A stretch of 64,000 nucleotides of DNA from Tubulanus polymorphus (Eukaryota; Animalia; Nemertea). The DNA is taken from assembly GCF_964204645.1 (NCBI RefSeq), contig NC_134027.1:18562560-18626559 (forward strand). Reading direction: 5' to 3'. Made by a program: the position numbers and the translations under genes. This document shows positions 242 through 25,347 of this stretch, piece by piece. Within the stretch, counting starts at the first letter, position 1. The number at the start of each line of letters is the position of its first letter. Below the pieces are notes generated by a model. That model made no database searches. It was not told the origin of the DNA and saw only the letters and a list, made by a program, of their open reading frames with translations.

Positions 242-513
242 GCCGCGATCACACGGACACGATTTGGCCCGGGCCAAATTGGCACGGATCAGGCTAGGGC
301 CAAATTTGGCCCATGCCTAATTAGAGAGCGCGTTCACACGCAAACCATTCACTCGATACTAAACAATGCTAAAATAAAGCGAAGTGGATCATTTCCGGTG
401 TCATTTGCAATTCAAACGCAATCATCTAGTGCTAAAATTTGGCTCGGACCAGTTCCGATGTTTTTGGTCAGGCCAAATTTGGCCCGGGCCAAAAATGCTC
501 GTGTGATCGCGGC
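242..513. mobile_element. MITE with TIR GCCGCGATCACACG, TA-flanked; nested in an older palindromic MITE (~173-592)
   Basis: Perfect 14-bp TIRs and internal AAATTTGGCCCGGGCCAAA palindromes. A second copy lies at 25348-25676 in the opposite orientation. Confidence 0.85.
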
Positions 514-1023
514 TAATGTTACAATTTAAGGCCAGTCTTAAGATTCTTTAAGACTACATTTGAACTTAAGCCACAACTGTGCAGCCAGCCTCAGGTGTTC
601 CTACAACACGTGTTGTTATCAAATCCGTTGACTAGATATGTCTTGCACTTGTTCACCACGGTAAAAAAAAAACAGAATAGAAATAGAAATTAGCAATAAG
701 TAGTCAAAAATATATGATTTTATTTTACGTAATCGATTTACATATTAAAATAAATTTGATTTGCGGAAAGTTAAGAGCATTTTACATCATTAAAAAGTAG
801 ACAAATATATTTCAAAATCTATCGGCATGATTTACACAATGAAAACAGTCAAATGTGAATTCAAACATGGCCTCTAGCATGTAAACTATAAGTTATCGAA
901 TGACGTACGTATTATTCAGTTATATTACGTATATGTGTTAGGGATTAAGCGGGTATTGCCACCAAGTGAGAAGGCGCCCCTCTAGAGCAGTGAATTCCCG
1001 AAGCGTGACGATTATACATCAGT

Positions 1024-4000
1024 TTACCTCCCGAGTAAACCCATATTTCCACCGTGTCCGTTTCTTCGCCCACGCTTATCTGCGTCCATTTCCTCTGCAT
1101 ATGTACTTCTCAATTTCAATGATTTCTGAAGATTGGCGATTAATTGTTGGAACAATGCCAATCTTTCGTTTTCCAGTTCATCTAATTCCTTGTAAATGTC
1201 ACCTTTTTCTGTAATCAATTTGATAGAATACATGTAACACAACATAACGCCATTTTCTTTAAGACGTATTCGTATTATAGCTTTTGAAACATTATCTTTT
1301 CTCGTTAATTCAAACATGCGTGTGATGATGAATGCTGTACTCAAAAACCAAATAAGAAGACTTATAGTGAATAGATATTGAATTAGGGATTTATCATACA
1401 ATGTATTCAGTGTACGTATACAGAAATGAAAACGGCCTATCAAAACAAAGTGATTGATCTGTCTAGTAAAGCATTAATCATTATTCTCTCCTTCGCTCTC
1501 CCTCCGTCACCACTCCTAGTTAATCCATCTTACAAAATCAAATTACGTCTTACCAGGTCTCGAGCGTTGAGACAATTGGTCAATATTGGGATTTTCGCTC
1601 TTTCTAACATCATCTTTTTTTCCAGTGACAAATTTTTTCACCTTTTCCCAAAGGCTTTTTGCTTGAAATGTTAAAGATTTCAACACACATTCAATCTGTC
1701 ATTAAATGATTAAATTGCACAGTCATTAAACGAATTAGTGTCGTTAATAGTTAAACCCCCATTATTATAAGCTAAATGTACAAAAATGTTTATTTTACCC
1801 GTTTCTGATCTCTTCTTATCATCACTGCCCTCGTCACTTCTCTTGTCAGCTGAAATAGAATTATCTGATATCTTAGACTTGTCTTTTCAGGACTAATGGA
1901 GGACACAAGTTATAAAATCAATGATCACATAACTTTCAAAATTCGTCATATATATAAAAATTGTTTAATTACTTTTAGCGAACTGAAGCACACTAAAACT
2001 TTGCCAAAACGAAGTTAATAGCAAAATATCGGTTAAAACGAACAAGATCTAGAGTTCCAACCCACAAACTCATTATTCCTTAGTATATCACTAAGGAGAC
2101 TGCTCGCGACGGATACGTTTGCCTCGGATTATCGTATTCACCGGATAAATCGGCTAATTAGATTTTCTTTTTACTACAATTAATATGTTAATGACCCATC
2201 GTTGCTGCGACTATCTCGGTATTCGATCGCTTTGGAAGATATTGATCGGCCCCACTAGATCCGAGGCAAGCGGAGTTTCCTGTATTTCATGTCGTTTACA
2301 ACGATATTGCCGGTGTAGCAGTTCTAACGATGTTCTACTGCAATCGGATTAGCACTTTCCAAATCAATACCTGTGTGGGTGCCCAGACCTACAAACATTT
2401 GCTTCACTGGGTGTTCCTTCATTTGATACCGGCACATTTTCTACTGGTACGTTTTTATATCTATTTATGAATATTACGTACGTTGTGAATTGTTTCAATT
2501 TCTGTGAAAAACAAAGATTACTATCATAATTACATCAGTACGGCCTACATTTCAGAATTTACTTACAATCTTTATCTGATTCCAGTTCTCTTTCTACAAG
2601 GAAAAAGAAACACATACGGGAATTAACCTATCAACTTGCTTGACTGCGGACTGGCAATTTTCTTCGTGAGTCACTTCAGTGAAATAATCATTAAATTTCA
2701 AACACTACCTAATTCAACAAGTAATTCCTTCCTCAATTCCGGCTTGTCTGATTCTTTTAATTCTAGAATTAAAACAATTTATGCAATTACACATTGCACA
2801 TAAGCAAATTTTGATAGTTCATAGATTTTCATTTACCCTTCTCATCTTCTACTTTTATTGCGGTATTTCTGGAATTACCATCTCCTAAAAGTGATAAGTG
2901 GATAATTTTATTTGATATACGTGAACAGATCTTGGCTATTTGGCTTAGTAGGGCATTGATAATTTCTTTATAGATTTAACCACAAGTCAGTAAATCAGAG
3001 TAAAATAATTTTGATCAACTGCGGGAGTAGAGATCAACCAAAATTATATTCCTCTGAGTTACTAACTTGTAGAAAACTGTAAGAATATAATTCAAGATGA
3101 TCCATAATTAACTTACTTCGCTGTGTGTGTAAAGGCATTTCATTTTTTTCATCTTCAACTGTTGAATATAGAATACGACGTTACTCTTATAATTTAGATA
3201 TTGCATACATCGTTGAGCATGATGTGTAGAATATGCAAATTGCAAAATTAACCAGCATCAAGAAAATGGCTTATTAACTGTAATTAATGAGTGACTGGGC
3301 TCTGGATTGCAAATTGAAGAAGGTGTAGCACTAACCGAACTAGATTAACTAAATAAAACATATCAGGCCATCTGTCAATAATTAATCAATCGAATCAATG
3401 AACTTATACGTAGATAAACCTATGAACCCACGACTTACCAGTTCCACGTTTTAAAATTTCAGATAATCGCATCATCTCATCCTCTGAAAGTAATTTTCAA
3501 TAAGGTAGACATTATTGAACACTGATGAAATTTCTATACACATTGTACCAAAACTTTAGATTTACCGTCACTGGCATGATTCGGTTCTTTCACTGGATCA
3601 CCTTAAATTTGAAAAAAAGAATTATTTCGAAAAATATAATTGACTTTCAAAAAATAATTCTAGTTCAGCATTTTCAATATAACATGATCTACAATACATG
3701 TTTTCAACCATCATTGTACGAAATAACAGTTCGTTGACTTTTCTTTAATTAAATGTTAACCAGTATCTGAATATCTCCCAACACGTGGAGTTATACCATG
3801 ACCGTGATATTCAATGACTGGCCAAGAACCTAACGGCATATAAATGAACCTAAATCGAACTGTTACAATTTATCAACGCGAATTGATTTTCATGAACGTC
3901 ACTTTGAATGAACTCGATATCTTTCTAAGTTTCCGATCTCGCCTTGTCAATTTCTGGCAGTCTACATTGTTTCTTGTTATGATTTCACGTTAATTCATTA

Positions 4001-7000
4001 ATGTTTCAACAATGTAATAGTCTAATTTTGAATTGATTAATCATTATCATACATTCATTTTAACAGAATCAGCTTACGTCTATCAAGAAGTTGTTCGTTA
4101 AGTTTTTCAAATTCTGCTTTGAGAAGTTCTTCGGTTAATGGATCCTTGTCAGCTGCGAGGACTGTAGTCAACACTACATAAAGAATAACAACCTGTAAAA
4201 TACAAACAATTCTTTAATTTTTGAGATCTCTATATTAGCAGGCAATTCTATATTTTACATAATGACGTGTCGAATTGCAAACAGTATTCTATTCTCACTC
4301 CCTGCTGTGCGGACATACTATAGAAATATAGTTTAAAGATATGGGGAAAACCGGGATCTCCCAGCGATGGCACCAATCACTCCAAAAAGACAAGCCAAAA
4401 ACCCACACAAATACCCCACAACCCAAACCCCAACCAAAAGAGATGAACATTTATCAAAGCAGTAAACTAAAAACGTGAGATTTGAGTACATAGGTGCAAG
4501 CCCTACGTCCCCTAATCCCTTAGATACTTCGTGTAAGAGGTACAAGAGAGCGTAAGTTAAATCGGCAGCGGTTACCTGACCAGAGGGCAGGAAAAGCAAC
4601 TCATAATAGTAACCCAAAGTAATCACAATCGTTGAAAATAAAATACACACTCTGAAAAACAAATACCGTACCGTTTCCCTGGGGAACTAAAAGGGAGAAT
4701 ACTAAACTAGCCCCCGCCTCAGCCAGCATGACCATCAAAGCCATGACAACGGATACTAAGAGCCCTCTGCGAAGAGTTGAAAACAGGATGCAGTCAAAAA
4801 AGGGTACGGAATCGATACGTATGTAGATCCATCCGAAAAATACAACAAACGTTGTAGGCAAAAGAATCACAATCTTTGAAAATAGTATCAATATGGAAAT
4901 GGGGGAATACTAAACCAAGCCCAAGGCAGCAAGACCGAAGTCGTGACAAAATATACTAAGAAGGGGACGGAAAGAGAGTTGACAACAGGAGAAATCGCCG
5001 AAACAGATCAGAAAACCGAAATAACATTATCTTTAATACATGTATCTTTATTGTGCAACTCATGATTGTTCAATTACATTATCAGCTTCATACATCGATC
5101 GGGTTATCTGAGTCGATGTCTAGTAGCCTAAGCATGAAACGCTGGACAGGCTAACAGGAAGTGTTTTTCAACTTCAATCACAGAATTAACCTAAGCTCTG
5201 GTCGAGTGGGATTTATTGAATCAGATTCAGATTCAGATTTAATTTATTGCTCCAGTAATTATACAATTTTTTCGAGCACAGGATACAAAAAATAAACAAT
5301 TTACTGTTATTCAATTACGGTTACTCCAGTTACATTTATAATGTACAGTGATAGTTTCTTCTTCTATAGGTATCATTATACACGCAATTAAAACGTGTGT
5401 GCACAGTCAGCGATGGCTAGATGAGGCTATGTGCCTTTTTAATTAATACTGCTAGCTTCCTCAAGGTGTTTGGGTCTCGTGATGTAAAAAGATTCATAAA
5501 TTTTCTTAAGTTAGGGATATTTACTAGTTGTTGCGGTATGTAGCGACTTCTTAAACTTTCAAAAAATTACACTCCATTATGAAATGGTATTCGTCGCCAA
5601 TTTTTTCTAGACGTATCGGCCTCACTCCGCGCGGTTGCCCCACCGCGCGGGATTATCGCGAAGTAGCAAACACAAACATGGCCACTCCCTCAATTTCCAA
5701 TGATAGAAATCGTGTGTGCATTTCAATTATTTCGGCTGTTAGGGCTTTAAGGCACAATATAAGTCGATGATGTGATATGGCGATGTCAATTAATGATAAT
5801 TCCGCAGTGAAGCTAGTCACGAACTGTGCCGATTGAGTGTACAGCTGCCAAAAACGCTGAAATGTGCGTAGTTGCGTAACTATTTGCTGTGAATTGCAGA
5901 CGAAACATGAAGCCTTAACGGCCGTTTAAAAAAAAATTATACCAATCGCAATTGTAAAATAAAAATGAGATAGAACCTAAGTTAAAATTCTGGCCATTTC
6001 TAAAATGTTCCATTTCTAAGATCACACTACACTACCCATTACACACTCCAGTACCCACAGCTTTTATATATCCATCCAAATATATAGAGTGTCTTTCTTC
6101 CTGGGTCACATTTGGTACAGAGTCGTTCATTCCGGGGAATATTTTCATATCTTCCCGTTTCAATCGGTAGGTTATGGTTAGAACAACGGAACCGTATTGA
6201 ATTTGTCCTTAGGTCAAATGGTAATGCTAGTGAACATATTTCCCGCCCCCAATTCAGCTTAATAATTCCATAAGTATCTAGTTTTGTTGAGGCTTTAATA
6301 GTCTGGTGCCATTTCTGTTTAAATTGGTCTTGTAAACGTAATTTAACAATTTCTGACAAATAACGGCAGTTCGGGAAAGAGTGTTCGTACCAAATGTAGC
6401 CAAGACCAGAGTTTTCTAAGATCGACTGGATACAAGTTATCCATTTACTGGTCTTACCATTTACATAATTTCTTAATAGAATGCGATATATTTTACCAGA
6501 ATGAGTGTTGCTCTCTGTAATCAGGTGTCCCCAAAACTTAACCATTCTGACTTTTATTTGTATTTCAAAGGGAAGTCGTCCTAATTCTCCGTAAACCATA
6601 GCGTAGTAGGTTATTTACCTTGACTTTGGACTTGATATGTTGGTACATGTTATGAATCACTCGGAGAATGGGTCCTGTAATTCCAGTTGAAATTGATTTA
6701 TGCCGCAGTGCTTTTCTCCATATTGTGTCGAATGCTTTTTGATAATCAATAAATATACAATAAAGTTTTCGCTTATTACCAGTCAAAATGTCTATAAGAG
6801 AATGCAGTGTGAAAATATGGTCCATGATACTACGATTTTTCCGAAATCCGGCTTGATTTTCATTCAGTAATTGATTTTCCATCAAAAACTACTCTAAACG
6901 TTTATTAATCAGGCTCGTAAACAATTTGCTCATACAGCTCAGTAGGGTAATTCCTCTGTAGTTATCCGGATTGGAAGGGTCTCCCTTATTCTTATAGATC

Positions 7001-10000
7001 GGGGTGATAATACCTACTGCCCACTCTTCCGGAATGCAACCTGTTTTCAATATATTGTTAAACAACGAAACAAGGGTAGGCAGGATTTCATTTTCTGCAG
7101 TTTTGAGAAATTCGTTTAGGATTTCGTCGTTTCCAGGGGCTTTGTTATTCTTGAGGCATTTTATGCATTTGGATAGTTCCCCCTCAGTGATAAGCCTATT
7201 AAGTGCATCATCATTATGATCATGAATGAAGTCACTTACATTGAAAAAATTATGAGTATCATTTTCTCTACTATGGTTTTGGTTAATAGCGGAAAAATGG
7301 TCAAATAGATCATCTAGCGACGCTTAACATCCCTTTGGTTTTTCCTTTCGGAAATATTTCCAAAAAGCTTTCGGATCATCTTTTGCCAACTTTTCTATTT
7401 GGTCATTATGCAATTTAATTCTATTTTGTTTTGACATCTTTATCGATGCCTTATATCTCTTATATGCCGAATTCAGATTATTTCTATTTTGAACGGATCG
7501 ATACCTTTTGTAATTTCTTTTCGCTTTCCTATAGATTCTACGATCTCGTTTCACTTTATGGTCATATAACACTGTTCTTGGTTTGTAAGAGGTAACCCGG
7601 CTTCGGCCCATTGTGGCCCGTATTCAAAATGCCACATATACGCTTGTTTGCACAGGCGCTATCTATTGTACCATTTTGAAGTTCGATATTTATTTTATCT
7701 AGTTTGGTTTGGTTAATCGCCTCTCTAAAAACATGGCTTCGGCCACTGTTCCATTTAATTTTACCTGGTGTGTTAAGAATATTTTGTTCATTGGTATATA
7801 AACTTCTCGCGTGTGAAATAGAGAAGGAACACGTAACAGGGCAGTGTACGTCAGATATCATTTGGTCATAGTCATTTACATTGAAGCTCACGCATTTTGG
7901 CAACAAATAGGGAGACATAATAAAATAATCAATAACATGGTTATTTTCCCCTTTAATGCACGTGTACTCCCCAATTCCTCTATCACTACCTAATCTGCCA
8001 TTTGCAATGAACATATTGTGATTCTTACAAAAGTCCAACAATCGATAACCTCAATTATTGATAAAGGAGTCTTTGTTTTTCCTATTGAGTAAAACTTGTG
8101 TTTTCGTGTGTTTTTAATATATCAAAGTTATGACGGTCTTCCATAGACACTACATCTAGACCTATGAATTCCATGAGTGTTTCGTCATGGGGTAAATAAT
8201 CTAGTAACTGCTTTGTGTAGGCATTGAAATCCCCGCATAGACAATAGTAAGCATCGGTAGAACTCAATCGATTTAAAACGTCAGTGTCAAGTTCATCAAA
8301 TAAGTTAATATTTCCATATCTACTAGTTTCTGGGGGGATATATACTCCTCCAATTAATAAGTGTTTGTCCCACCTTATCAATTTCAATCCACTGAATGGT
8401 ATTGGTTGATTTTTGGATGGTTTTGGAGGATTCCACCGGATTTCCTTATAGCTAAGTTCGATCTGTTGTTCATAACTACTTCATAACCGACACTTCTAAA
8501 ATACCTTTTACCCACAATTCATCAGAATCATCAAGTTTGGTTTCTGAAAAAACTAAAATATCCGCTGACTTGCATAAACAATCAAACTCTACAGTATATG
8601 ATCTTGATTTCAAACCACTAATATTCAGGCATAGGATACTTATTTCTCCTGGCTCTATTCTGGAGCAGATGCTAGCGGTTAGGGTAGGTGTAATCCACTA
8701 AGCGACCTGTAGTGGGAATGTTGATAGTAGTAATATGACCGATAAATCACACAATGTGGGGACTTACGTAATCTAAAGAACACGGAATAGGAGAAGTAGA
8801 TGAATTGCTCCTGGACTAGAACGCATCTTCAGACCAACAACCCCAACCAACGATAGAGTCGGCTGCTGGAGTTGGTGCATTTGCGTATAGCCCCTTTTTG
8901 CATTGGTCGTTGTGTATTTAGAACTTAAATCATTCAACAAAAAATAAAGATTAGGCCACACAAATAAATACCCTTATTTCTCAAGAAATCAAAAACCGCC
9001 CGCGTCATGAAAATAGTCCCTAATAAAAAACAAAAAGACAAATGCGCTCGCCCGCATCGGCAATGCATCAATCGCCTTTTTAATAAACATCAAAACCCGC
9101 TCGCCCGCATAGCTGTAGTGTACGACAGTGATTTTTTCTGCGGCAGTTAATATGCTCATCCTCGACGTACGGGTAATCCACATTTACGGTGACAAAAACA
9201 ACGCCAGATTCGTTTCCTTTACTTCTTTTCGAGGAAGCGTGAAAATAGCTACTGAAAACGAACAATACATCAACACTATCCGTTCTTATTTTCTACAACG
9301 CAGCGCCTAACAAACGCATGCAGATTGATTTGACCACTGAAGTCAAAATAATTCAAAAAGTTGACAGAGGAACGAAAAAAGTGGATGTATGCAGAATGTT
9401 TAATTTGAAGGTTCGGGGCGGCTCATCGAACATAACCTCCAGCGATTAATTACCGGTAGTCTAAATTAGTCAGAACTTTCCTTGAGTTCGTTACGAAACA
9501 CTCGTTTCGACTATATGAGCATTTCAGTTCATAAGCTACGGTTTATTTTTTTCTTCAATCTTTACAACGAAGTATCGGATACAACGATATTTTCATTTTG
9601 CCCCCAGAACTTCGTTGTAACGAGGTTTGACTGTAGTACAGTCGTTCCTCGATTGGACCCTTTTTCACCAAAATCCCCAAATCATCCGGATATCAATCCA
9701 GTCGGCTCCGGCCCATACACAACAGGGCACACAGTCCTAAGCGCCACATAGCTCTCCAGCCCGCACACAGTGGACTCTGGGGCACACAGCCAAGTCGTGC
9801 ACAATACGAGAGAGCGCAGTAACAAAACCAAGCCGTAAACAACCACAACGCAGATAACACGACAGACAGCGAGGAAAACTTAAGCAAAACTGATTTTTCT
9901 CTGTCAATCAGCAGCGCCACTTAGTGAGAAGATATAAAAATTGACAGTTACATATATTCTATAGTTTGGTAAAGCGATGTTCGGTCTTAAAACAACAAGG

Positions 10001-12333
10001 CTGGATCCTTCTGATAAAGTCTTTGAAATTTCATTTTAGTCACCACAAATGGAAAACCAATAGCCCATGAGTTTTGGCGCTCTGTGGCCAATTTCTGAAT
10101 GAATTCTGGAGCGGGACAAGGTCTTCGGTTAATTGGGAGTAATGAAATTGTGCCGTTTGGTCTCGTTTTACTGTCATGGTTGTTAGTAAGAACTGCCCCA
10201 ATTATATGAGCTGATTTAACCAGCGTTGTTTTGCGACATAATTAGCGAAGTGTCATCTCAAGCCGTGGTTTTGAAATAATTCATTTTGAAAAGTCGACCA
10301 ATAGACGAAACTCATATCTTAATGGCGTGAACTAGTCCAACATCCATTTTATTACGTAGTTGGAGTCGATTATTTTCTGGGTTTACTAGGGGACGTACGT
10401 AATTGAGTAGCGTGCCCTCTACAGGGGGATGTAGGTAATTGACTAGCGTGCCCTCAAGAACCCATAAACCGGCCGCCACATCCTTCTGGAACGAAATAGG
10501 GGAGTTCACTGCAAGGACATCGTCGAAGAAATATCCTTCGACAAGCTTCTTCGACAATCGGAAGCATTCTCAAAGAAATTGAAGAAATTGATCCTGAAGT
10601 GGTGGACTACCTTTACATAAAGTGGCTGGGATCGAGGGGCTGGTCGTTTGCGTGGATAACCTATATAAGTGGCTGGGATCGTGGGGCTATTTGTTTGCGT
10701 AGGCCTAGATAGCCCCTATATAAAAGTAGCTGGGATCGAACGACTGGGTGTTTGCGAAGATTACCCTTGTACAAAATGGCTGGGATCGAAAGGACTATAT
10801 GTCGGGATGTTGGATACCGGGCGAGCGGGTTTTAATTTTTACATAACATAAGACGATTGATGCTTTGCCGATGCGCTTTTGGCTTATTAATTTTTACTAG
10901 GGACCTCTTATTACGAGGACGGCATTTGAGCTTTTTTGAGAAACTATGGTATTTCTTCGTGTGGCCTAGGAACCGGTATTGCAGATTCTCCAAATATATC
11001 ATCTGTAAACGGTTATCACTAAATAAACTAAGACACATTAAAAAATTAACATTTATTATGTGATTGTCGGATTGTCGATGGAAATGTTCTCGACATTGCT
11101 CGGTTTCTGATTGTCGGATTGTCGAAGGACATTTTTCCGACAATGCTTCTGATCGTCGAAAGAAGTTCTCCGGACATGGGACAAAAACCGCATTACGCAG
11201 GTTGTCCCTACGACCTCGGCACAATTCAACCAGAAAACGGAGTTGAACCGGCCTACTAGTGTGAAGTTGTACAACAGCTATTTCATTACTTGAAAATAAT
11301 TACGTGGCCTCCATTAAACCCATAAAACGTACGGTACGTATTTCAAGCATATTCTACGGTAGTTTGTTGTACCATACAGCAACTGCATAGACAGTGACAG
11401 TATCTCAGTTGGTACTTGACCGACACTGTATAGATCAGATACGTATTATTTTCCTGCACTTTTTATTCTCAAATACTTTTTTGTTTGATACCTATATAAT
11501 TATGATACCGGTGGCCTTCGCGGTAACAAGATATCTTCCAGTAGGTGGTGACCCGAGGTCACAACACATTCATCATATATCCATACATTCTGAAGTGATC
11601 TACATGTACTAATTTGTGTCTTGAAATGTTTTAAACTCTGAGCCATAAGACGCCCATGGGTATCCACTGGTTTTCACTCGTAATCATGATTCTGAAATGC
11701 TCCTTCCAATAATTCGAAAGGTTTGAAGTTCTGTACAAACAATTCACCACCTTGAATTCACGGATAGAATACTAATAGTTTCATACGTAGTTTCCACGTG
11801 CAAGTACAAGTCACCGTTTTGTTTTTCTTTTACTTTCCTTTCACAAATAAACAATAAACGTCTCTTTCATACTATTTCTTGCTTCCTTGAACACTCCTAA
11901 TTTGAAGAATTATTTTTCAGGACCTTGAAACTCCTCTAATTATGAGAAAATATTTGAAACCACGAAACTGTTTTCGCAAGATCAGCGAAGTTGGTGTATT
12001 CTGTCTGTCTGCGACAATGGTTCCTGGCCTACTCAAGCCAGACACATGATTTATAGAATATTTGATATTACCATGATGTAATTGATTAATCTCTTCGAAT
12101 TTTGTGATCAAATCTTCTTGAATACTTGGATAAGTCCTCAAATTCTGGAATGATTTCATTGAATGAACTCCATTGCCGTACCGATCAAAATATCAACCCT
12201 AGAAATATTGCTACGTATTTTTCCCCTCCTCTTCTCAGGCGGATTCAGCTCGTAATGTATATCTTAATGGAATAAGTAATTATTGGTTTGAATTAGTCAT
12301 ATTGAATAAACTTACCAAGTATCCAGTTTTCAT
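1024..12333 (-). CDS. Gene A: multi-microexon secreted prepropeptide (neuropeptide/granin/linear-toxin-like precursor), ~242 aa, family not recognised
   Basis: Coding exons, all bounded by AG/GT: 12333-12316 (MKTGYL, phase 0), 4192-4078, 3601-3566, 3483-3439, 3158-3117, 2884-2837, 2762-2709, 2593-2567, 1849-1799, 1661-1554, 1208-1024. They total 729 nt in one open frame. Signal peptide MKTGYLVVILYVVLTTVLAA, acidic body, RR/KR/KKR sites, C-terminus ...DKRGRRNGHGGNMGLLGR*. Candidate polyA signal (TTTATT on +) at ~719-724. The link to the distant ATG exon is inferred from phase and signal-peptide fit. Confidence 0.8.
5210..8660 (-). mobile_element. Decayed non-LTR retrotransposon ORF2 (APE endonuclease + RT + C-terminal CCHC), RTE-X-like, inside the first coding intron of gene A
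   Basis: Endonuclease motifs ISILCLNISGL, SETKL, GGVYIPP, LCGDFNA, IDYF. RT motifs NYRGITLLSC, ENQAGFRK, FIDYQKAFD. C-terminal YGELGR, RCSNHNLPIETGRY, C..C / GDEYHFIMEC. Many frameshifts. 3' end AATAAA plus a (TCTGAA)n tail at ~5210-5248. Clade assignment is tentative. Confidence 0.9.
5607..6103 (-). mobile_element. ~0.5-kb insertion splitting the LINE zinc knuckle; Helitron-like 3' end
   Basis: The LINE frame ...CTKCD (~6105) resumes as LEKIGDEYHFIMEC at 5610. On the minus strand the insert ends with hairpin CCGCGCGG-n8-CCGCGCGG about 16 nt before a terminal CTAG. Confidence 0.55.
10620..10795 (+). repeat. Four degenerate ~50-bp tandem units sharing (A/G)GCTGGGATCG
   Basis: Motif at ~10624, 10671, 10728 and 10779, each preceded by a TATAA/ATAAA-like run. 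Confidence 0.7.
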
Positions 12334-12359
12334 GTTTCTTGTCGTTAAGTGTTCAATCC

Positions 12360-14830
12360 CTAAACAATAAATAAACAGAGTTTCTACACACCTTATACCT
12401 GCAGGTCTGTTCGTGTACGTAACACAATAAAAACCTGAAATATTTTCTTCTGCAGAACAGAAGTGAATGCTTATATGGGCCCTATACATACTATGTTTCA
12501 ATCACAATAAATCTCTTAAGCTTTATATCTATGACTATCTATTTATTTGGCCAGAAATATTAATGGAACTTTGATCAATCTATTCGTTAGGGTTCTATTC
12601 ATTTACAACGGATCCACTTTTTACCGACGGGCATTACAGAAAGAATATGAATCTTTGAAAAAATCAGACAATAAAGGAAATTCCGAGGGAATTTATACAT
12701 GACTAAAAAGCCAAAATGATTTACAACTTTTAATAGTTCAAAGCACCACCGAATACTTTTCTTCAGGTAACTCTTCTGAAGAAAAGACGGTGTAGGAATT
12801 ACGAGTGTAGGGATTAATATTGACTAATAAAACGTATGCGCTGTGTGTGGAGTTATTATCAGTATACCTTGGAGCTTGGAGCAATCATTTGATGATTATA
12901 ATCAAATGATTACTCCAAGATTATACGTACTCCTCCGCTTATAGATCCTTATTCTATAGTATCATGAGTACGCGTTTATCGGGGTTTAGAGGATTATGGC
13001 CTGGCCTCATGCAAACGTGATGCCTGAATTGACAGTTAGACGGATACATGGGGTTGATCCTACCATTGGTACCTGTAAAGAACCAATTTGAGGAGTATGT
13101 GAATAGAAGAATCTCACCGACCGGTCGCGGGCGCTCTCGAGTAACGAACGAAATATCGAAAGTCATAATATCTATTGAAATGTAAATTGATATCTATGCC
13201 ATTGTGGGGATGTTAAGTAATAGTCTCCTAATTGTTCAATCAAATTCAATGACGGTCACTTCTGCTTTTTAATGATACGTATGCACGTATATTTTCGTTA
13301 ATCCGTACCGTAGTTATGCTGCCATTTTATAATGCTTTAATATATCAATAATGGTTGAATGAGCAAAGACAGCAATAAATATGCACCCTCGTGTAATTAT
13401 ATTGCTTTTACACATTCATGATAATCCATCGGGACACCCTAGATTTAGCTCGAAGTTAAACGTCGACATACGTATCTAAAAAACTCGGATTTTTATAGTT
13501 TGATGTGAAGATTCACTTACAATTTTTCGTACATATATACATTATCAGTTGAGAAAAATCTGTATATTAGTGTGTGTATTCTAGCTCTATCCTCTCTCCC
13601 TCTGCGTAGGACCTCTAATAGTCTGAGGGCTTTGGGCATTAAATAGAATTCTATAGGGGTGCATTGTATAAATGCCTACCTATAAACACGCGTTATTTAG
13701 GTCAACCTACAAACCTTCCTGAAGCAGCGTCTCTTGTTTAGCAGTTTCTCTAGTTCTCGTCGTGAGAAGAAAGAGAATGGGGGGAGAATTCATCTATAGA
13801 ACATAGAGGCATCAAGTTGCCCTATTCATTCATTCTTCGAGGCGATATTTCTATTCATTATGTAATTATATAAAACACCCAATGCTACCGTATGCATATG
13901 TAGTGTAGATCTCGCCTTATTGGGATTAGTTGGCACTAATAAAATCCATTCAGATTAAACCAAAATCCGGATAAAAGTGATTTGGATCTGAATCCGGAAA
14001 AATGTGATTTTTGTAAAAATGTATTGTCAAAGCCTGGTCTGGCTTAAACAATCATTCGTTTCACATTTGAAATTACTTGTCTCGACTGTGCATCTTCATG
14101 TCTGTATTTTCTAATTAACTACCGGTAATCAGAACTGTTTAGATATCATGCCAGTTTTAATGTTATTGTCCCTGATTTTCTTTAATTCAAAGTTGATTCA
14201 ACGAAATAAATATTAAATTTGCGGATGTATTGTGACAAGGCTTTTGTGATATCGCTCATGATAATTGGTGGAATTCTTTTGATATATATTCTTGTATTTG
14301 TCCAAGATCTACAACATTATGTCACTTCTGTTGGGTCAAGTTTCGAGGTGTGTCTACACGTTGAGGCAAGTTGTGTGTTCAAATACGTATTTCGTGAACG
14401 AAAAAATATCTTCATGTTCTTAAGGTTTTCAATCAGTTGGTCCTCTCAAAAAATGGAAGAAAACCCGAAAACCCGACCCGGCTGATTGCCGTAGTGAATG
14501 ATAGATCACACGTCTCCTCTTCGGGGCGATGTCTTAATAAGATGTTTTTATTCGCTCCAGTTATGAATAATTTACAATCGTTTAGCAATTTTATGAAAAA
14601 TCTATTTTCAAATGCGAAAAAGAGCCCTGTGTATTGATTGAAATTTCGAGGTATGTGATAAACGTATACATATGATAAATACAATAAGACGAGAGGTTCC
14701 CAGACACATTAGGTCGACATAAGTAGGTCTCTTTAGTAAAATAAATTCACAAAAATATGTTAAGTAATGATAAATGCTGTATTTATAAGTGGTTTTATGG
14801 AATGAAGGTGTGGAACTGTTCTCGTTATAC
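12360..14830. promoter_or_regulatory. Divergent intergenic/promoter region between genes A and B
   Basis: Lies between the 5' ends of the two divergently oriented genes. TATA-like motifs on both strands (TTTTATA ~13491, TATAAAA ~13869, TTTATAAG ~14782). TSSs not determinable. Confidence 0.35.
12868..12919. mobile_element. Tiny TIR-only hairpin element (CTTGGAG(C/T)AATCATTTGA)
   Basis: Near-perfect palindrome. Flanks AGTATAC/ATTATAC form a 7-bp TSD with one mismatch. Same family as 33195-33241. Confidence 0.7.
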
Positions 14831-15216
14831 AGTGCATTACAGGACGAACTAGTCTTCTGAACAGGTGAGTTAAACTAAACCTAGTATCAATGAAATCTCT
14901 AAAACTGCTCATTTCCATTGGTAATCATTTCCTATAAACACGTTTTATAAGAATGATAGTGTATCTTATAAGAATAATATCTTGTTCACAAGCATATCAG
15001 TTAGTCATGATGAATGATGGCATAATACATGGATCACATATATGTGCAGAATCGATGTAGCTAATTGCGAAAGAATTTAGTTCATTTTTTCCTTCCACGC
15101 GGCTACTATATCCAACTGACGAATAAGCCTATACATGACGAGAGACGGATGAATATTATTTTAGGAAAGTAGGTTTGTCTATTGCAGAAGTAACAGATAC
15201 GTCGCGCAGGAACAGA

Positions 15217-18200
15217 ATGCATTATAAACTCATCGTAAGTTCCTTTTTCATCTACAAATACATCGTTTATTTCAATGCATTAGTAAGCTGACTTCAGGTG
15301 TCATATTGACAAGGCAGAATCGAAGTGGGATTACGAGAAATTTGATTTGAAGATTTGATAATCCTGCACGGACTTTCTTTCTTCGTTTCTTCCAAATGAT
15401 GGCCGCAATTCTATAGTTATAGTTAGTAGAGGATATATTTGTCAATTGTAAAAGTTTTGACTCGGGATGGTCCATTATTTTGATTAAGGTTAGCAATCCC
15501 GGCGGTAATACATACGTCTTGTTGGATTATGTTTCACATTCACCGAAAAAAACTCGTCAGTTTATACTTAAACGAAAACCAAACCTGACCTATTTAGCGG
15601 AGATGTTTTGTAAAAAATTTAAAAAACTCTTAGAAAAAGTGTCTACCATGGTGGTAACTAATTAGATTGTTCGACAAACTGAAGATATGTGTAGAATAGC
15701 CATAGAAAAGTTTTAAAACCTATATACAAGATTTAAAAGATGTCGTAAATATAAAATGAATTTTACTTATCAAAATATCATAAGATACGAAGTTTCGAAC
15801 TCTGGATATAGTTTAAACTTATGAAAATGTGTGTTTTCGTGATATTTTTAAGATTATTTTCGTGTTGTGTGGAGCTGGAATTTCTGCTGCTCCCGCGAAA
15901 CGTCAAAATCCAGGTACATATTTTCAATTATTGGATATGTACCCGTAATTCCTTCGATGAACGTATAAGTGGAATATATTAAATTTTGTGTCTACTTTGA
16001 AGGCAATAATGACCAATCGGAGGTAGCGGATTTCCGAAGACTGTTGAATATATTTGTTCGACTATTGGAGATTGCATTACCAAAGAAAGGTTAGTCAAAC
16101 CAAGGACGTTCTCTCGCGCCTCCCTGGTGTCTAACACCATGAAGAGCTAGCTCTAGTTCGTCTTCTGATCTGAAAGAATAACGAATTAATCATCGTGCTT
16201 TATACTGTATTGTAGGTGAAAATGGATCTCAATCTCCGACTGCAACTCCTCAGAGGCGCCAGGATGAAGGTTAGTTAGTTTCAACTCCACCCGATAAATA
16301 AACCAAACCCTCCCTGCATGATATCTATTCAAAATAATTCATATGCAGCAAAAGATACATCTAGAGAGAATGACAAAGAAAATGACAAAGATAGCAACTT
16401 AAGGGAGAAAGGAGATACAATGAATAAACATGAGAATCTGAATCTAAATAAATCTACAGAACTCACTGATTCTACAGAATCTAACGCTACAATGGCTGTA
16501 GGCTCCAATGCTACAACCCAGTCTATAAATAAGAGACAGGAAAGTGACGTAAAGCCTACCCAAGACCCTACTAGAACAACCGCGTCACAAGATTATACAA
16601 CTCAGCCGAATTCTGATGATAAAATTGGGAAAGAAAAAAAACAAAATCAGAGATGGAATGATCTTGAAATATATACTAAAACATTTGCCAAACTCTTGAA
16701 GTTGTTGATAGACAGTAAGTGACTATTGCATAAAAGCCAATGCAAACGTATTTTTGACATTAGAATTATATATAGACGTATTTTCACAAACAAATCGCAC
16801 AAACAATACTTTTGAAATTTCAGAAAAATATCCACAATCGGCATTTGACAAACGAATAACTAATGTTGAAGGTAGATAACAATTTATTGTGATGCGACAA
16901 AACTACGAATAATTTATTTCAACTGACTTCTTTTATCTCGCTTTTCAGTGTAATCCATCTTTTTACCAGCTCACTTCACTTGGGGCGTATAACCCCAGCG
17001 GGTTTTGCATTCACTTATCATCCGTTGTCCTTCCGTTCGTCCGTTAGACCAGGGAAGTGTGATGAGATGGAATACGGACGCTTTTAATTGCCGGATGTAG
17101 GCTATTCAATTCAGCCCGTACATCAAAGGTTACCGCAACAGCAGTAAGCTACGCTTATCGAGTGTGTGTTACCATCTGAACACCAGTCAACATCAACTTT
17201 GATTCGGTCGCAGAACAACCCGCAATAGTTACATCAACCGCAATAGCTCATCACACTTCCCTGGTTAGACGGATTCCAGTTATTTTAGAAAGCTTTGAAG
17301 ACGCTTTAGCGGGTTCTCCTGTACATGTAGCATCCCTAGACACGGCTGCACTTTTTACACATTTTTGAATCACAATTTTGAGGCCCATCCATATACCAAC
17401 TATTTCGGTCATAATAGTGTAATATCTGGCCGCTGGGACTTGAGCCGATATGGTTTTTTTAGAATGATCGAAAGTGACTTAAAATTCGTGCCAAATCTCA
17501 ACACAACTTTCATACGCTCGAGATCAATTTCGACAGAAAGTAAACGAATGTAATATGTTCCTCAATATATGCTAATATATTCCAAAGTTCCAATCTTTCC
17601 AACAAAGCCTAAGCCTAAGCTAAGCCTATTTCAATTCAATTTGAAACACCTTCCAGCTCGTATCATGATCGGTTAAGATCGAAAATCGAACATCCTCAAA
17701 ATAGCAAACCCGGTTCAACGGTTTGCGTCAAGTTTAACACAACCATGGCTGCATCCATGTGGAGCTGTTTCTGAAAATTCAAAAAGTCCGAGTGCTCGCC
17801 ATAACACTATGGAATTTCTGATGGTTAGTTTTTGAGCAACTGGTAACAGAATCACCAATTGTATCTGTTGCGGCAATATTTCATTGATGCAATCTGATAA
17901 GTATTGACGGGAGATGAATGAAACTCAAATGCCTGACACTAGAAGACTTATTTCGACTATTTTGACTCTAGAAGACTATTTTGACGATCTTAGATGATTG
18001 TCGGTGTTGGAACAATTATCAAATTATTCACAATTATCAAATAATTGACAATTTACAATTCATCAAATAACTAGGTGCCCTTATTTCCATAGTTACTGAA
18101 AATGTTGATTCTGACAAAGTACGATCGGTTAGATTGTCAAATTTCTTGATATAAATATGCAAACACGATACTTTAACAAAACAAATGCTCAACTATATTA

Positions 18201-20267
18201 TTATGAAAACATACTACAGTGTCAAAGACATTCAGGTGTCATATATTAATTATCTAATTATTTATTCAGAAACATTGTCTCAAAATCATAAGACTTACTC
18301 GCAACAAACTCACTGAGCTGGCACTATATATAACAATGCGTGTTTCTCTTTGTTATTACCAACTGTAATTACAGTGACTCTAATATTGTGTATAAATATA
18401 TTGGAATCTTTGATAGAGGGAGATTTATTTGAGATCTAGCCTTGCAACCTGCGTGACAGGGATAAACTAGCTAGCCGAAAACTATATTTGTTTGCTGAAC
18501 GAAATAAAGCTATATTCGCATCGGAAGTAGAGTTTGTGTTTTGCTGACAGATCTTGAAGTGCTACCTCATATGGAGATATACAGTAACAGTTATAGTTAT
18601 AGGAAAATACTGTAGCTAAAAATACTCTAGAGAACGTGTTTGGGAAGTTTGACAATTTCTTAAAAACTAATGATGATAATTGAAAACGGTAAAAAGCATA
18701 TAAAACCACATATATTGATATATTGATCATGAAAACTTGAAAAATGTAGATGAAAAATTTGTAAGAATTACGAACTTTTGAATGGGATGAGCAGTAATTC
18801 ATGTTATCATTTACATATTTATATCGGTACATAGCTATGCATACGTATTTTGTTACCACAAACAATAGCAAGCTTGAAGATGTTTCATGATTGTTTTGAG
18901 TTTCCTGTTGTTTATAGTATTATCCAAAACCTATGATATGAGTAATATGCATAAGTAGTTTTAGTTTGTGGTTGCGGTTACATGAACTTTTGATCTTTAT
19001 TGTATCATGTGTTTTGTACCACGTGTTCCTGCTTTATCTTTGTATGTGTGAATCCTTACTTATCAATAGAACGTCATATAGTAAACACGTAGTCTCAATA
19101 TTTCTTCTTCCACGCCGTTTTGTGTTGCTTACAAGCTCTGTAACAACATTTCCAGGGGGGGGGGCGCATTATTGAAATGGTGAGATTGCCAAGCATTTCA
19201 CCAATTGGATATGGTATCCCGGGCCACGGTGATGGTTTTTCAGTCTGGTTTCAATAACTTCATGCTTCTCTCCGTCAACAGCTGAAGTCTCGAATACATT
19301 CATTTTGTGATTTTCTGAACGCGAGTAGTGAAAATTATCACGTCTATATCATGTCTTTATAACCTTCAGAACGGATAAATCGCCCATTCGCACTCCAGTC
19401 TGTCTTGTTGATTTTACCGGTAATTTTACAGAAAAACGCTCTGATGAAAAAGGTCTAAGTGAAGCTGAAATGGACGCATGGAATTCATTTCTCTCGTCAC
19501 AAAACGAAGACAACGAAAAACAAGGTATTTAACCCATGACTGGTACTGAGGGCGCAGACATATGGTGCCCCAGCACAGGGTTCGGGTATTAATGGGTTAA
19601 TCAAGAAATCATTATTAGACTCTGATACCACAGTGTAGTTCATTGTCTTACTTCTTTCTTGCAGAAGTGTCTGAGGATACGATCAAACCCGACACATATA
19701 CCCCACTAGAAAGCAAGAAAAAATCAGGTAAACATATTTCCTGCCAGAGACGCTCTCACTATTACGTATCAAAACCTCCCCTTCATCGCATGGGTTTAAT
19801 TCAAACCACGGGTTATCTTCCATTCAGAAGTGATCGAGGAGATGATCAAGCCCGAAACATATAATGCTTTAGGGGGCAAGAAAAGATCAGGTATATATGT
19901 CGCTAACATGCGCGTTGCGTAAATAACTGTGTTCAGCTTTGCTTTTCTTATTCTCAATAGAAATTGTCGAGGAACCGATTATTGAACAGGAATATGCGAA
20001 ACCATTGGGATCAGATAAAAGGGATGGTAAGAGATAATATACACACCGCGCATACATACATACACATACACCACACACGCATACACATACACATAGATAT
20101 CCACCACATCTGGACGCTGGTGACGGAACCGGAAGAACAAATACTTGTAGCAGTCGACCCTAGTTCCAGGACGCGTTAACTACCTTTCAATTTTCGGTTA
20201 AGAAGACACTGCAGACTTAGACTTCATCGAGCCAAGGTCATTACGCATACCTAGACACGCCATATAA
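15217..20267 (+). CDS. Gene B: multi-exon secreted prepropeptide (neuropeptide/granin/linear-toxin-like precursor), ~311 aa, family not recognised
   Basis: Coding exons with AG/GT ends: 15217-15234 (MHYKLI, phase 0), 15853-15913, 16003-16089, 16216-16269, 16349-16714, 19432-19524, 19665-19727, 19828-19890, 19961-20026, 20203-20267. They total 936 nt in one open frame. Signal peptide MHYKLIIIFVLCGAGISA followed by APAKR. Multiple KR/RR/KKR sites. AATAAA at ~20422 and ~20525. Probable 5'UTR exon ending at 14864 (CAG|GTGAGT). The last exon is the least certain. Confidence 0.8.
17050..17263. mobile_element. 214-bp MITE, TIR CAGGGAAGTGTGATGAG, 7-bp TSD GTTAGAC
   Basis: Perfect 17-bp TIRs. GTTAGAC at 17043-17049 and 17264-17270. 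Confidence 0.85.
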
Positions 20268-22056
20268 ACCGGGCCATAAACAAACAACTGTCTGTCCGTC
20301 ACCTCTTTATCATAAACATCTTTTCCCCTCGTGGCTTAATGTCAAATCCTTTTGCAAATCATTGATAGTGATGATGATAAAACCGGAATCAACGTCCTCA
20401 TAGCGCAATCCACCGATGTCCAATAAAAAATGCAACGACAAGCGCTTGTATAATTGGTACTTTATGATTTATTTTCTCTATACACGTACGGGTATATATT
20501 TTTCTCTATAACAAATGGAGTAATAATAAATTGATAAAAAAATCTCTTGAAAATGCATACTTTTTTATTATGTTACTTGAAAGAAATACAGAATTCTTGT
20601 GAACTAGGTATATTTGAAATTTGAATGATAGGAAACACAATAGAATGGTAACATAAGTTATACAGCGCGATTCAAGGTGACCGGCAGCATTTTGATAGCG
20701 TAAACAACCTTGATATGAAATTGAACGCTAAGCATGTGCATCCGTAACCGAAAATTGAAAAGTAGTCAACGCGTCATGGAAAGGGTCGACCACTTAGCCT
20801 GTCGAACCGACCGGGTTAATCATGCCCCAACCATCTATACAACTGACGCTACTTCATCGCACTCGTTTCTACGTGACGTTCTGATGCAATCAAAATAGGA
20901 AAAAGTTGATTGTTTACCTGACCTATGTAAATCAGCTGTTGAAACGGAATTTTACCTTTAAACGTTTTTATCCTAAATGTCCTCCTGTAAATCCACGCCG
21001 TACCGTACCGCATCACGACAGTTCCATTTCGTCACCAAATTCTTCCCAATTATTCAATTTAGAAAACCAAAATATTTCTACTACATGTAGGCCTATAGAA
21101 ACAAAATCAGCGTATGTATATACTAACTGGACATTTATTTCGTAGATGAAAGTGATACAGCGGCGAGAGAACTCCTGGAACTGCGAGCCCTGCAAGCTTT
21201 AAAAAGATTTGCTGAATTAAAGAAGAACTAACGAGTGAAATGAGCCCGCGGCTTTAACTGAATTATTAGTTATCTTATAGAATTGGAAAAAATTCTGGGC
21301 GTTTCTTCCGTACGTAACCTATATAAGATATTGAACCACTTTGAGGAACGACTGTTAAACAAATCTTAGGTTGAAAGCATTATAATCAAGCTTATTTAAT
21401 TACAAGTTTATAATATTTGTTTTGTTCTGTAATCTGCATACACTGTGCCATCTATCGGAATATAAAGATATGTAATCCACAGTTTGGTATCGAACGTTTC
21501 TTTATCCAAAGTTCATTTCAGAGTACTGTACATGCCATATTCGAGTAAATAGATCAGTATTTCATATTGGATATTACTCATAATCAGCAATAAAAGTTTA
21601 CTTCAAGCTTTCATGTCAGCCTAGTTTGTTTTCATTCTACAGAGATCGCAGTCCAAATTACATATTATATGATAGTAATAATTTGATTTTGCAAACTGGG
21701 TCAGAAATCATACATACATACGTACAAGACCTCTGTATAATATCACTTCTATTGTTTGTGTGACAATCACTGAAATCGAAGGTAAGTGATATTCAGTCTT
21801 TAGCTGTTCCATCAATTCATAACCAACATATCATTCAAAACATCGTTGTCAAGTATGATGAAGATATGAAATTAAATTGCTAAGTCGCGGTGCAACCACT
21901 TACGCAAAAGGCCACTTATCGTAGGACGCGTGATTGGATACGAGTCAAAATTCCCATGGAAATTTTTTAAAAAAGTATCATGATTATTGTAGTTTCTCAA
22001 TCAAAATAAACTGTTCGATCCACTAGTTTATATTGTATATTTTCTAGATTTAAGAA

Positions 22057-22623
22057 ATGCCGACAATACAGAAGAAGCTGTTGACAAGCACACCCTCTGC
22101 GATGAATTTCACTAATATAACTAATAGTACAGATGGTTTACCAAATTGGTATCATATATATGGATTAGTGGAGAATTGTCGGTCTGATTGGCCCGTGGGA
22201 TTATGTGTTTGTTTTAATCTATGTGGTTTAACCAGTACGGCTATTTGGTTCTTGGTGATTTTGCCACAACTCTACAAAAACTATAGACACAAATCGGTGG
22301 CAGGTTTGAGTTTAGCCTGGGCCACGATGGATGTCACCGCCAGTTTACTGAATATGTGCTTTGTATACGGATCTGGTAGGGACCCTTTGCCCCTTTATAT
22401 AAAGATCCAGGCGGTATATCTGCCAGTCCTGGGTTTGATATTACTTACGCAGTTTTATAGATACAGCAACAAGGAGCATTACAAATTTAAATGGAAACTG
22501 GTGTACACTGTATCGTGTTTGTTCGTTTGGATTGGAATTCTGGTACTAGATAGTTGTTTAGATGTCTACCGACAATTTCAATGGGTTGCTATAATACTGT
22601 GGTCCACAGAACTTTTTCCACAG
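22057..22623 (+). CDS. PQ-loop repeat membrane protein (PQLC/cystinosin-like transporter family), coding exon 1
   Basis: First PQ motif (ILPQLYKNYRHKSVAGLS) and several TM segments. The exon ends at the second PQ (ELFPQ|GTACGT, phase 0). Upstream acceptor TTTCTAG at 22041-22047 and a 5'UTR donor at 21782. Confidence 0.85.
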
Positions 22624-23153
22624 GTACGTTTTAGTGATGGAAAAATTCAGTAAATCTTATGAAAACATTATACAAGTTTATAACGAGCCTTTGGTTAACA
22701 CGGACATGTTTGGACATTTCCGCAAGCGTTCTTCTATAGCGTTTATCGCTATATAATGCTTATCGCATAGTTAATAAATCGAGAAAGTGTCATAGGCCTA
22801 TGTCTGTTTGATCCGATATGAATGAAATAAAATCACTGTACGTATTATAGACGTTTTATCATAGGGCGAACTTTAGATTTTATTTATGGTCATTGAAAAA
22901 AATTGAGCTGAGATTTTGATTATTCCAGACCTAGCCATGTTAAATCTGGATAAAGTTCACAAAACTAGAAATAGATATTCATTCACACAGTTCACATACA
23001 AAGTAGAACAGCCTATAGTTAATACATGTATCTATATTAAAAGACGCAATAGATATTATGTACGTGTATATGCGATCGTGTTCACTTATAAAAAATGCGT
23101 CTTCCCTTTATTTTCACACGTTACATGAAAGATATTTTAACTTGTTTTTGCAG

Positions 23154-23861
23154 ATAATTCTTAACATTATTCGGAAGTCGACGAGCGGTCAGTCTACTGT
23201 ATCCGTATCACTGGCAGTCGCTGGGCGCAGTACTGATTTCTTGTCCGCATACGGATTGCTAATGCCAATACAGTACGTATCTATGACGTATTTTACGTGT
23301 TCGCTAGTCTATATAAACGCCGCTCAGGTTGTTTGGTTTTGGCGAAATGGTGAGGGAATCATAAATACCCATCATTTAGCTGATGTAGATCTACGAGAGT
23401 TATCGCGGGACCGCACCGAAAGTAATATATCGACCGTATCCGTCGAGTTGTCCGACCCTGATGAAAGGACCGATCGGTCCGGTAGTCAGATATCGCAAGA
23501 TTCTGGTAATGCATTAAACCCTGATCAAATGGAAAATGTTGAAATCGATGGAACTTTTACGGGTAATTTTAACGCTTTGCGCACAATATCCATTGCAGCT
23601 GACGAAGACGAAGTTGTAATTTTCGATGCTCCCGTCTCCTCGCGTCCTGGTGTCAGGTTCCTTCTCAAAATGAACTATAAACGGACGACTTTATTGAGTT
23701 TGATATTTATTGCTTTAACTTTGTTTTCAGTCGGATTTGTTTGGTGCTCCGCATCATTCTTAGCCTTGATAGCTCCATTAATCATAATACTGATAATAAC
23801 ATGCGCAGTTTTTATCATCAACAGACTGCCTAAAACTATTACTTATAAAATTTTCAAATAA
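23154..23861 (+). CDS. PQ-loop repeat membrane protein, coding exon 2 (total ~424 aa)
   Basis: Acceptor TTTTTGCAG|ATA continues the second PQ loop (PQ|IILNIIRKSTSGQS). Followed by an acidic Ser-rich loop and two more hydrophobic segments. Stop at 23859-23861, AATAAA at ~23997. Confidence 0.85.
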   Translation: MILNIIRKSTSGQSTVSVSLAVAGRSTDFLSAYGLLMPIQYVSMTYFTCSLVYINAAQVVWFWRNGEGIINTHHLADVDLRELSRDRTESNISTVSVELSDPDERTDRSGSQISQDSGNALNPDQMENVEIDGTFTGNFNALRTISIAADEDEVVIFDAPVSSRPGVRFLLKMNYKRTTLLSLIFIALTLFSVGFVWCSASFLALIAPLIIILIITCAVFIINRLPKTITYKIFK

Positions 23862-24887: not shown

Positions 24888-25347
24888 CTAAAAGTACAAC
24901 AACAGTCAGTTACAATCCTTTCCATTCTAATTTTCACAAGACCTGAGCTCATTGAGCTTAGCGACAGGGCCAGTATTTAACAAATATCTTATTATCCTCG
25001 TCTCATTTGGACTTTTTAATAGACGATTCGGATTTTCCTAGCTGATCAAAGCTGCCATTTTCTACTTTCCTCAAACGACATTAATCTAAAAACGAAACAA
25101 TTACTTTATGGCGATATATATCGCTAATTGGTTGTTTATCACCGGATGTGTGCTAAGGAACACCATTTTAATCCCCGTTTGGTATCAAATAAAATATAAC
25201 CCTGACGGAAGTTGCCTCGGTCCCCAGTGCGCTGACCATTCCACATCACTAGCCAATCTCCTTTTACAGAAACTAATGTTTATATGAGGCGAGGAGCGAG
25301 CGTGTCCAGTCTCCATAGATCCGAACAACGCACTCCCTCACTGTATA

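Follow-up and report, generated by a model that had tools for sequence, protein, structure and literature searches.

Described systems closest to the gene pair

The closest described counterpart of the genes considered here is the DMF peptide precursor (MS-peptide 2), which has been validated by mass spectrometry in heteronemerteans (Thiel et al., 2021; PMC8557429). We analysed two divergent multi-exon genes, gene A on the minus strand and gene B on the plus strand, in a stretch of 64,000 nucleotides (nt) from Tubulanus polymorphus (NCBI RefSeq assembly GCF_964204645.1, contig NC_134027.1, positions 18,562,560 to 18,626,559 of the forward strand). We refer to this whole stretch as the window and number positions from its first letter. 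We put at roughly 0.6 the probability that both genes encode acidic precursors, with a predicted signal peptide and skippable exons of the same phase, that would be processed by convertases into signalling or granin-like peptides.

The DMF precursor is listed for seven heteronemerteans and not for T. polymorphus, is classed as a neuropeptide candidate and, in four species, has between 4 and 16 isoforms (PMC8557429; here and below, statements on this source refer to the available passages of its main text and supplement). Peptides bounded by Lys-Arg (KR) were detected from the Lineus precursor, which shows cleavage at KR sites (PMC8557429). The same source describes the AGEamide precursor (MS-peptide 3) of heteronemerteans, an acidic protein of 250 amino acids (aa) with a signal register similar to that of gene A. 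This precursor is also unlisted for T. polymorphus, for which pedal peptides 1 to 3 are already listed (PMC8557429).

Schistosome micro-exon genes (MEGs) share with this pair a signal peptide and short, symmetric, skippable exons, and their products, in the available passages, are likewise disordered with some amphipathic helices (PMC4350168, PMC10526429). MEG exons are 6–81 bp long (mostly 15 bp), number 10–20 per gene and are described as flatworm-restricted (PMC4350168, PMC10526429). The pair studied here differs in having longer and fewer internal exons (27–366 nt, seven to eight per gene) and dibasic processing sites. We rejected a schistosome-type micro-exon gene because, despite the symmetry, the smallest internal exon is 27 nt and four of 15 exceed 81 nt.

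Vertebrate granins (chromogranins and secretogranins) are acidic, mostly disordered proteins that begin with a signal peptide and contain short helices, dispersed dibasic sites and possibly sulfated tyrosines. Both proteins encoded by the pair have the same general traits, a likeness that is an analogy only. Pfam scans returned no Granin family for either gene, at E up to 1 and 10 for gene A and up to 10 for gene B.

Two divergent genes with uniform intron phase

RefSeq already annotates gene A as LOC141901996 and gene B as LOC141902896, each ‘uncharacterized’. The first-pass annotation of this DNA had described the pair as hidden, which does not apply to RefSeq; its proposal of two divergent genes stands, since our exon models reproduce the annotated proteins. 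Gene A has 11 exons, running from an ATG at 12333 to a stop at 1024, that match the final 242 aa of annotated isoform X1 (P0053) exactly. The 10 exons of gene B (15217 to 21231), with junctions known from annotation alone, give exactly the 318 aa of P0054. When the last exon of gene A was searched, the only matches among 46 candidates were two isoforms of LOC141901996, X1 with 258 aa and X2 with 246 aa; for the long exon of gene B, the sole match among 47 candidates was isoform X2 (318 aa) of LOC141902896. The cluster of P0054 has two members, and neither locus identifier is mentioned in the literature searched.

The first coding intron is in phase 0 in both genes, and all introns after the signal-peptide exon are in phase 1 (9 of 9 in gene A, 8 of 8 in gene B). 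With independence and a base rate of 0.33, 17 of 17 phase-1 introns would arise by chance at about 7e-9, although duplicated exons are not independent. As a phase control, the two located introns of the window’s aquaporin gene are both in phase 0. All 15 internal exons are multiples of three, in agreement with the symmetry first proposed for the pair, and 14 of them measure 27–108 nt. The description of both genes as built from microexons fits gene A, where six of eight internal exons are at most 51 nt, and fails for gene B, where none of seven is that short (54–366 nt). A six-codon leader followed by a phase-0 intron had also been proposed for both; the phase is confirmed in each gene, and the six codons hold for gene B and for one choice of start in gene A.

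Two 63-nt exons of gene B are tandem duplicates (z = 11.6, the sole outlier among 171 exon pairs compared). This duplication points to growth by symmetric-exon duplication, which alone keeps the phase uniform, and growth through phase-1/phase-1 exon duplication thus best explains the pattern. Exon junctions show no clear tie to basic pairs (5 of 8 in gene B, p = 0.06; 4 of 9 in gene A, p = 0.42).

We checked the joints of gene A in sequencing runs X1 to X4. Run X3, which is not recorded as RNA yet is spliced, contains all nine joints after the signal-peptide exon, with CT..AC ends and depths of 156–342. Spliced reads across these exons, the check that the first-pass annotation had suggested, are therefore present for gene A. 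No gene A splice joint is among those listed for runs X1, X2 and X4 (15 of 39), and in run X1 positions 500–4319 of the gene A region form one unspliced contig. Annotated isoform X2 of gene A lacks the 36-nt exon 3601–3566, and this one recorded skip indicates that skipping of symmetric exons does occur.

Predicted proteins and peptide processing

Both proteins are acidic, with isoelectric points of 5.28 (gene A) and 5.32 (gene B), and neither has a cysteine after the hydrophobic N-terminus, as had been proposed from the sequence. By hydropathy only, the strongest hydrophobic stretch of each protein spans residues 4–18, and none of the 11-residue windows further along approaches it. Pairs of KR or Arg-Arg (RR) are enriched in gene B (8 versus 2.85 expected, p = 0.002), which supports the proposal of secreted convertase-type precursors; support from gene A is less clear, as discussed below. 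Pfam matches in both genes to Pannexin_like, HSP9_HSP12, Histone and other families fell below the cut-off, and we read them as effects of composition and helix.

The cleavage and amidation rules of convertases, carboxypeptidases and PAM are an established basis for predicting amidated peptides. The C-terminus of gene A consists of KRGRR, ten residues, Gly-Arg and a stop, an arrangement from which these rules predict an amidated decapeptide. One gene B repeat also has a glycine at its end, before KKR, and would yield a second amidated product. Glutamine follows three of the eight KR/RR sites of gene B, suggesting that some of its peptides may acquire pyroglutamate ends. Overall, the proteins would enter the endoplasmic reticulum through the predicted signal peptide, and convertase and carboxypeptidase would then cut at Lys-Arg and Arg-Arg sites in secretory cells. 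Expression may be in neurons or neuroendocrine cells. Combinatorial skipping, seen in the DMF isoform series and as one event here, could alter the peptide mix.

Possible relatives of gene B and gene A

Several features link gene B to the DMF precursor. From the C-terminal repeats of DMF precursors we read a 13-position consensus. It matches gene B at 10 of 13 positions (residue 249) and 8 of 13 (residue 228), each time with the start of the match directly behind an exon junction, and at 7 of 13 (residue 271), one residue into the third repeat exon; the consensus was written after gene B had been seen, and the significance of these matches is overstated. Among 20,000 shuffles of gene B, none reaches 10 of 13 and 0.11% reach 8 of 13. 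The best match in 53 other proteins is 6 of 13, and the best in 115,200 six-frame windows is 7 of 13. DMF C-terminal repeats start with valine after the junction residue, and the repeat exons of gene B match them in register.

By eye the order of modules seems to agree too. In both it would run from a short leader, the signal and a helix to a spacer with [KR]RQDE at its end and a long one closed by an FxKLL helix, then to an acidic AE[LM]D core after KR, the repeats and a terminal helix with KK. The two precursors are further alike in a signal-peptide cysteine within a [FV]VLC stretch, in acidic amphipathic-helix modules and in KR sites. The exon-start register and the module order seen by eye add weight to homology, and gene B is, judging from these sequence features, quite probably homologous to the DMF precursor. 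We regard it as likely a diverged palaeonemertean relative, and not the DMF-peptide gene itself, because the name-giving peptide is absent. Its AEMD core after KKR runs on without D-M-F or a basic cluster, and its repeats, unlike those of DMF precursors, carry tyrosine and basic-cluster ends.

On our reading, DMF isoforms swap modules, and the residues at their junctions vary among codons with the same first base, which is what skipping of phase-1 exons would produce. The main-text passages of PMC8557429 available are silent on phase-1 exon skipping in these isoforms.

Gene A is a gene of the same design with no detected relative. In the Atlas, neuropeptide precursors account for its top match and for several of the ten listed; all score 0.83 or below, and they provide a lead only. 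It matches at most 6 of the 13 positions of the DMF repeat consensus and has no D-M-F, with likeness by eye at the N-terminus only. Comparison with the AGEamide precursor gave a few short colinear matches by eye (5 of 8–9 residues), a level that we estimate to be common by chance, and the AGEamide peptide, AGE-Gly-Lys-Lys, is absent from gene A. From these sequences, a relationship of gene A to the DMF or AGEamide precursors seems doubtful. Some copies in pedal peptide 2 precursors (phoronid examples) end in GLL-Gly-Arg like the last peptide of gene A, but those precursors are multi-copy with an aspartate near the start, whereas gene A has one copy without it.

Precursors of GxGH, AxxxDF, ND, PSLamide and prohormone-2 gave no fit on inspection by eye in the passages available. 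The T. polymorphus GxGH precursor has two isoforms and skippable modules, a trait therefore not unique to this pair. Searches of the available Thiel supplement with the window-derived motifs NGHGG, YNALGG, WEKVKKF, ELRALQAL, APAKRQ, IKPETY, LERELE and six 5-mers gave no matches. MGLLG and GLLGR gave 3 and 14; those of the matches displayed lie in receptors and pedal peptides. The first-pass statement that the pair belongs to no recognised family therefore stands for gene A and not for gene B.

Exon structure of gene A

The 5' end of gene A has two versions. In the annotation, the coding part of exon 1 (13521–13542, minus strand; donor gtaagt) supplies residues 1–7 of P0053 from an in-frame ATG at 13542, 16 codons upstream of the MKTGYL ATG, and may be 5' untranslated region (UTR). 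It is spliced to the 44-nt exon 2 (12316–12359), which holds the codons MKTGYL (ATG 12333) and a phase-0 donor. The coding start that the first-pass annotation had placed in this exon holds for one choice of start in gene A; as the first exon it is displaced, being the second in the annotation and bypassed in run X3. There, 4192 is joined at depth 342 to an alternative upstream exon (12072–12101, about 30 nt seen, candidate acceptor 12144), and cover is zero at 12129–12500, so the MKTGYL exon is uncovered. The alternative exon closes with an ATG codon whose context has A at -3 and G at +4, and both starts place a methionine ahead of the same hydrophobic core. If exon 1 (13542–13521) joins acceptor 12144, its ATG would open an upstream open reading frame (ORF) of seven codons before the ATG at 12074.

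The remaining exons, all on the minus strand, begin with the 115-nt signal-peptide exon (4078–4192, phase 0 to 1), which includes the first amphipathic helix. Eight symmetric phase-1 exons follow between 3601 and 1554, with every joint seen in run X3: 3601–3566, 3483–3439, 3158–3117, 2884–2837, 2762–2709, 2593–2567, 1849–1799 and 1661–1554. The last of these encodes an amphipathic basic helix with Gly-Lys-Lys at its end. The last coding exon (1024–1208) encodes a long helix, the KRGRR site and the predicted amidated decapeptide, then Gly-Arg-stop. The 3' UTR spans 719–1023 with AATAAA at 724–719, and the run X3 contig extends to 759.

We rejected for now a candidate 24-nt exon at 2501–2478, which is skipped in run X3 and absent from both annotated isoforms. 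The 1661/1799 joint, at about 1800, occurs in run X3 in two versions one base apart (depths 156 and 193); it is likely that both alleles of a synonymous variant are expressed. The 8-kb intron contains, in the ORF list, fragmented reading frames at 6039–8480 (minus strand) that we take, by eye, to be like those of long interspersed nuclear elements. Within the first long intron of gene A, very high-copy repeats lie at window positions 5700–6100 and 10600–10900, where the summed depth in run X1 is as high as 81,000.

Exon structure of gene B and the spacer

Gene B (plus strand) begins with an exon at 15188–15234 that encodes MHYKLI (ATG 15217, coding part 15217–15234) and ends in a phase-0 donor. 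The 61-nt signal-peptide exon (15853–15913, phase 0 to 1) contains the first KR site. Symmetric phase-1 exons follow from 16003 to 19524: an amphipathic-helix exon (16003–16089), 16216–16269, a Ser/Thr-rich exon of 366 nt that has three of the protein’s four N-glycosylation sequons and a helix at its end (16349–16714), and 19432–19524. A candidate optional exon at 16824–16871 keeps the frame and is not part of P0054. Three repeat exons come next, at 19665–19727 (8 of 13 DMF consensus positions matched), 19828–19890 (10 of 13) and 19961–20026 (7 of 13). The internal exons measure 87, 54, 366, 93, 63, 63 and 66 nt.

The annotated last coding exon lies at 21146–21231, with AATAAA at 21589, and gene B likely ends at 21231. 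The end at 20267 proposed initially falls within an element, like a miniature inverted-repeat transposable element (MITE), of about 640 bp in the last intron (20153–20789, no strand), and we therefore rejected the exon ending there as the main last exon. The arms of the element (20164–20209 and 20736–20781) are 85% complementary and its flanks extend them; no second copy is present in the compared parts of the window.

The spacer between the known exons of the two genes (13543–15187, no strand) is 1.65 kb. A sequence scan found a TATA-like TATAAATG at 13667 (plus strand) and, as further candidates, a donor (13762) and a 22-nt UTR exon (14843–14864). These features would place the start of gene B within about 200 bp of the first exon of gene A, and a shared promoter near 13.6–13.7 kb that serves both genes is possible.

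Weighing the interpretations

We consider signalling or granin-like precursors most likely, followed by skin defence peptides or matrix proteins. Several observations weigh against the first of these and against its DMF component. The enrichment of KR/RR pairs in gene A is not clear (7 versus 4.15 expected, p = 0.09), and the amphipathic helices are marginally above shuffles (best p about 0.035–0.038 per protein). A phmmer search of gene A against 1.84 billion representatives recovered only its own isoform, with no relative passing E 0.001, and a word search with the long exon of gene B matched only gene B itself. The repeat consensus was composed with gene B in view. Gene B lacks the acidic, KR-bounded peptide of DMF precursors, whose last residues are D-M-F and which a basic cluster follows. 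Finally, the DMF mass spectrometry used whole larvae and thus shows processing, not neuronal origin (PMC8557429).

A question of origin, compatible with any of these functions, is whether gene A and gene B arose by one inverted duplication that formed a conserved co-regulated cassette. We find this somewhat unlikely; the original suggestion of it gains weak support, and homology between the two genes is borderline. The genes have the same phase pattern (0, then all 1) and six-codon leader, lie no more than 1.65 kb apart between known exons and give a colinear local alignment of 135 aa (score 84 versus about 63 for shuffles, p = 0.023–0.030, and 62 for reversed sequences). The N-terminus of gene A is also similar by eye to those of DMF precursors. 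However, BLASTP between the two proteins gives E = 0.66, no A–B pair stands out at the DNA level among the 171 exon pairs (best z = 3.0), and no inverted similarity was found across the spacer. The EMDA and KRSDE motifs, first put forward as a link, are generic in nemertean precursors, occurring 13 and 28 times in the available Thiel supplement, FMRFamide spacers included (PMC8557429). The 6 of 13 consensus positions matched by gene A are reached by 16% of gene B shuffles. If gene A is instead an AGEamide relative, the Notospermus identifiers available put the DMF and AGEamide genes on different scaffolds.

A wider version of the signalling or granin-like reading is rather unlikely. On this view the pair would reveal a family of modular prohormone genes that is ancestral in nemerteans, of DMF type and possibly with AGEamide-type partners. 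Each phase-1 exon would act as a peptide cassette, combinatorial skipping would tune the cocktail and one bidirectional promoter would drive two such genes. Such a family would be a free-living, convertase-processed parallel to MEGs and an invertebrate counterpart of granins.

An alternative that we consider improbable is that the pair serves defence in skin or proboscis: the precursors would then free linear, amphipathic peptides of an antimicrobial or cytolytic kind from acidic spacers. In gene A, an acidic spacer and KKR precede a basic amphipathic helix (moment 0.67), after which comes Gly-Lys-Lys. Linear peptides of frog skin and scorpions have an acidic spacer/basic helix layout like this one. 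Helices of gene B have moments of 0.92, 0.82 and 0.65, and lineage restriction suits fast-evolving secretions. Nemertean skin and proboscis do secrete peptide toxins, but those highlighted in the available passages are cysteine-rich (PMC12846013). Most predicted fragments are acidic or neutral (net charge at most 0 for seven of eight in gene A and six of nine in gene B, none above +1). Gene A offers one cationic candidate if the Gly-Lys-Lys site is used, and the moment of its helix falls within shuffles (p = 0.27). The DMF relative of gene B is filed as a neuropeptide candidate (PMC8557429).

Least probable are granule-matrix or mucus/tube proteins, disordered with short helices and with basic pairs that are mostly incidental or spacer-trimming: this would suit the low-confidence, mostly disordered helix chains of single-sequence models (pLDDT 45–46, pTM 0.23–0.25), the lack of a repeated amidated motif, the Ser/Thr-rich block (122 aa) and the four sequons of gene B, and the fact that the best DMF conservation lies in the repeat and helix scaffold and not in the named peptide, but it is opposed by the KR/RR enrichment of gene B, the KRGRR and Gly-Arg that flank the last ten residues of gene A, and the KR cleavage of the Lineus DMF precursor (PMC8557429).

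Other features of the window

A PQ-loop membrane protein gene lies directly downstream of gene B (22054–23861, plus strand), with two long ORFs (PF04193, E 6e-16 and 0.0015). The minus strand encodes the aquaporin (MIP, E 3e-47) from 38826 to 24870 and beyond, across about 14 kb, and a TMEM70 homologue at 51563–43134 with two exons, one of them 43134–43700, and a 7.6-kb intron. Across 188 aa, the product of that TMEM70 exon shows 100% identity to a T. polymorphus protein, and the next match reaches 57%. A short plus-strand ORF at 57192–57569 has a Cys-rich, zinc-finger-like pattern. We also identified a further MITE-like element in two oppositely oriented copies (237–522 and 25346–25685) with internal palindromic repeats and blocks 88–100% alike, related tandem units of about 154–161 bp (48543–48911, 58957–59559 and 29684–29995) and a 190-bp array (52289–52801).

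Implications

If gene B is related to the DMF precursor, whose listings are confined to heteronemerteans, that precursor extends to palaeonemerteans. In that case conservation would reside in the scaffold of repeats and helices and not in the named peptide, which raises the question of which product is active. The genomic model supplies an exon basis for the DMF isoform series, and gene A is the source of a predicted orphan amidated decapeptide that can be tested. On present evidence the pair represents no new class of system; its value is to nemertean neuropeptide and secretion biology.

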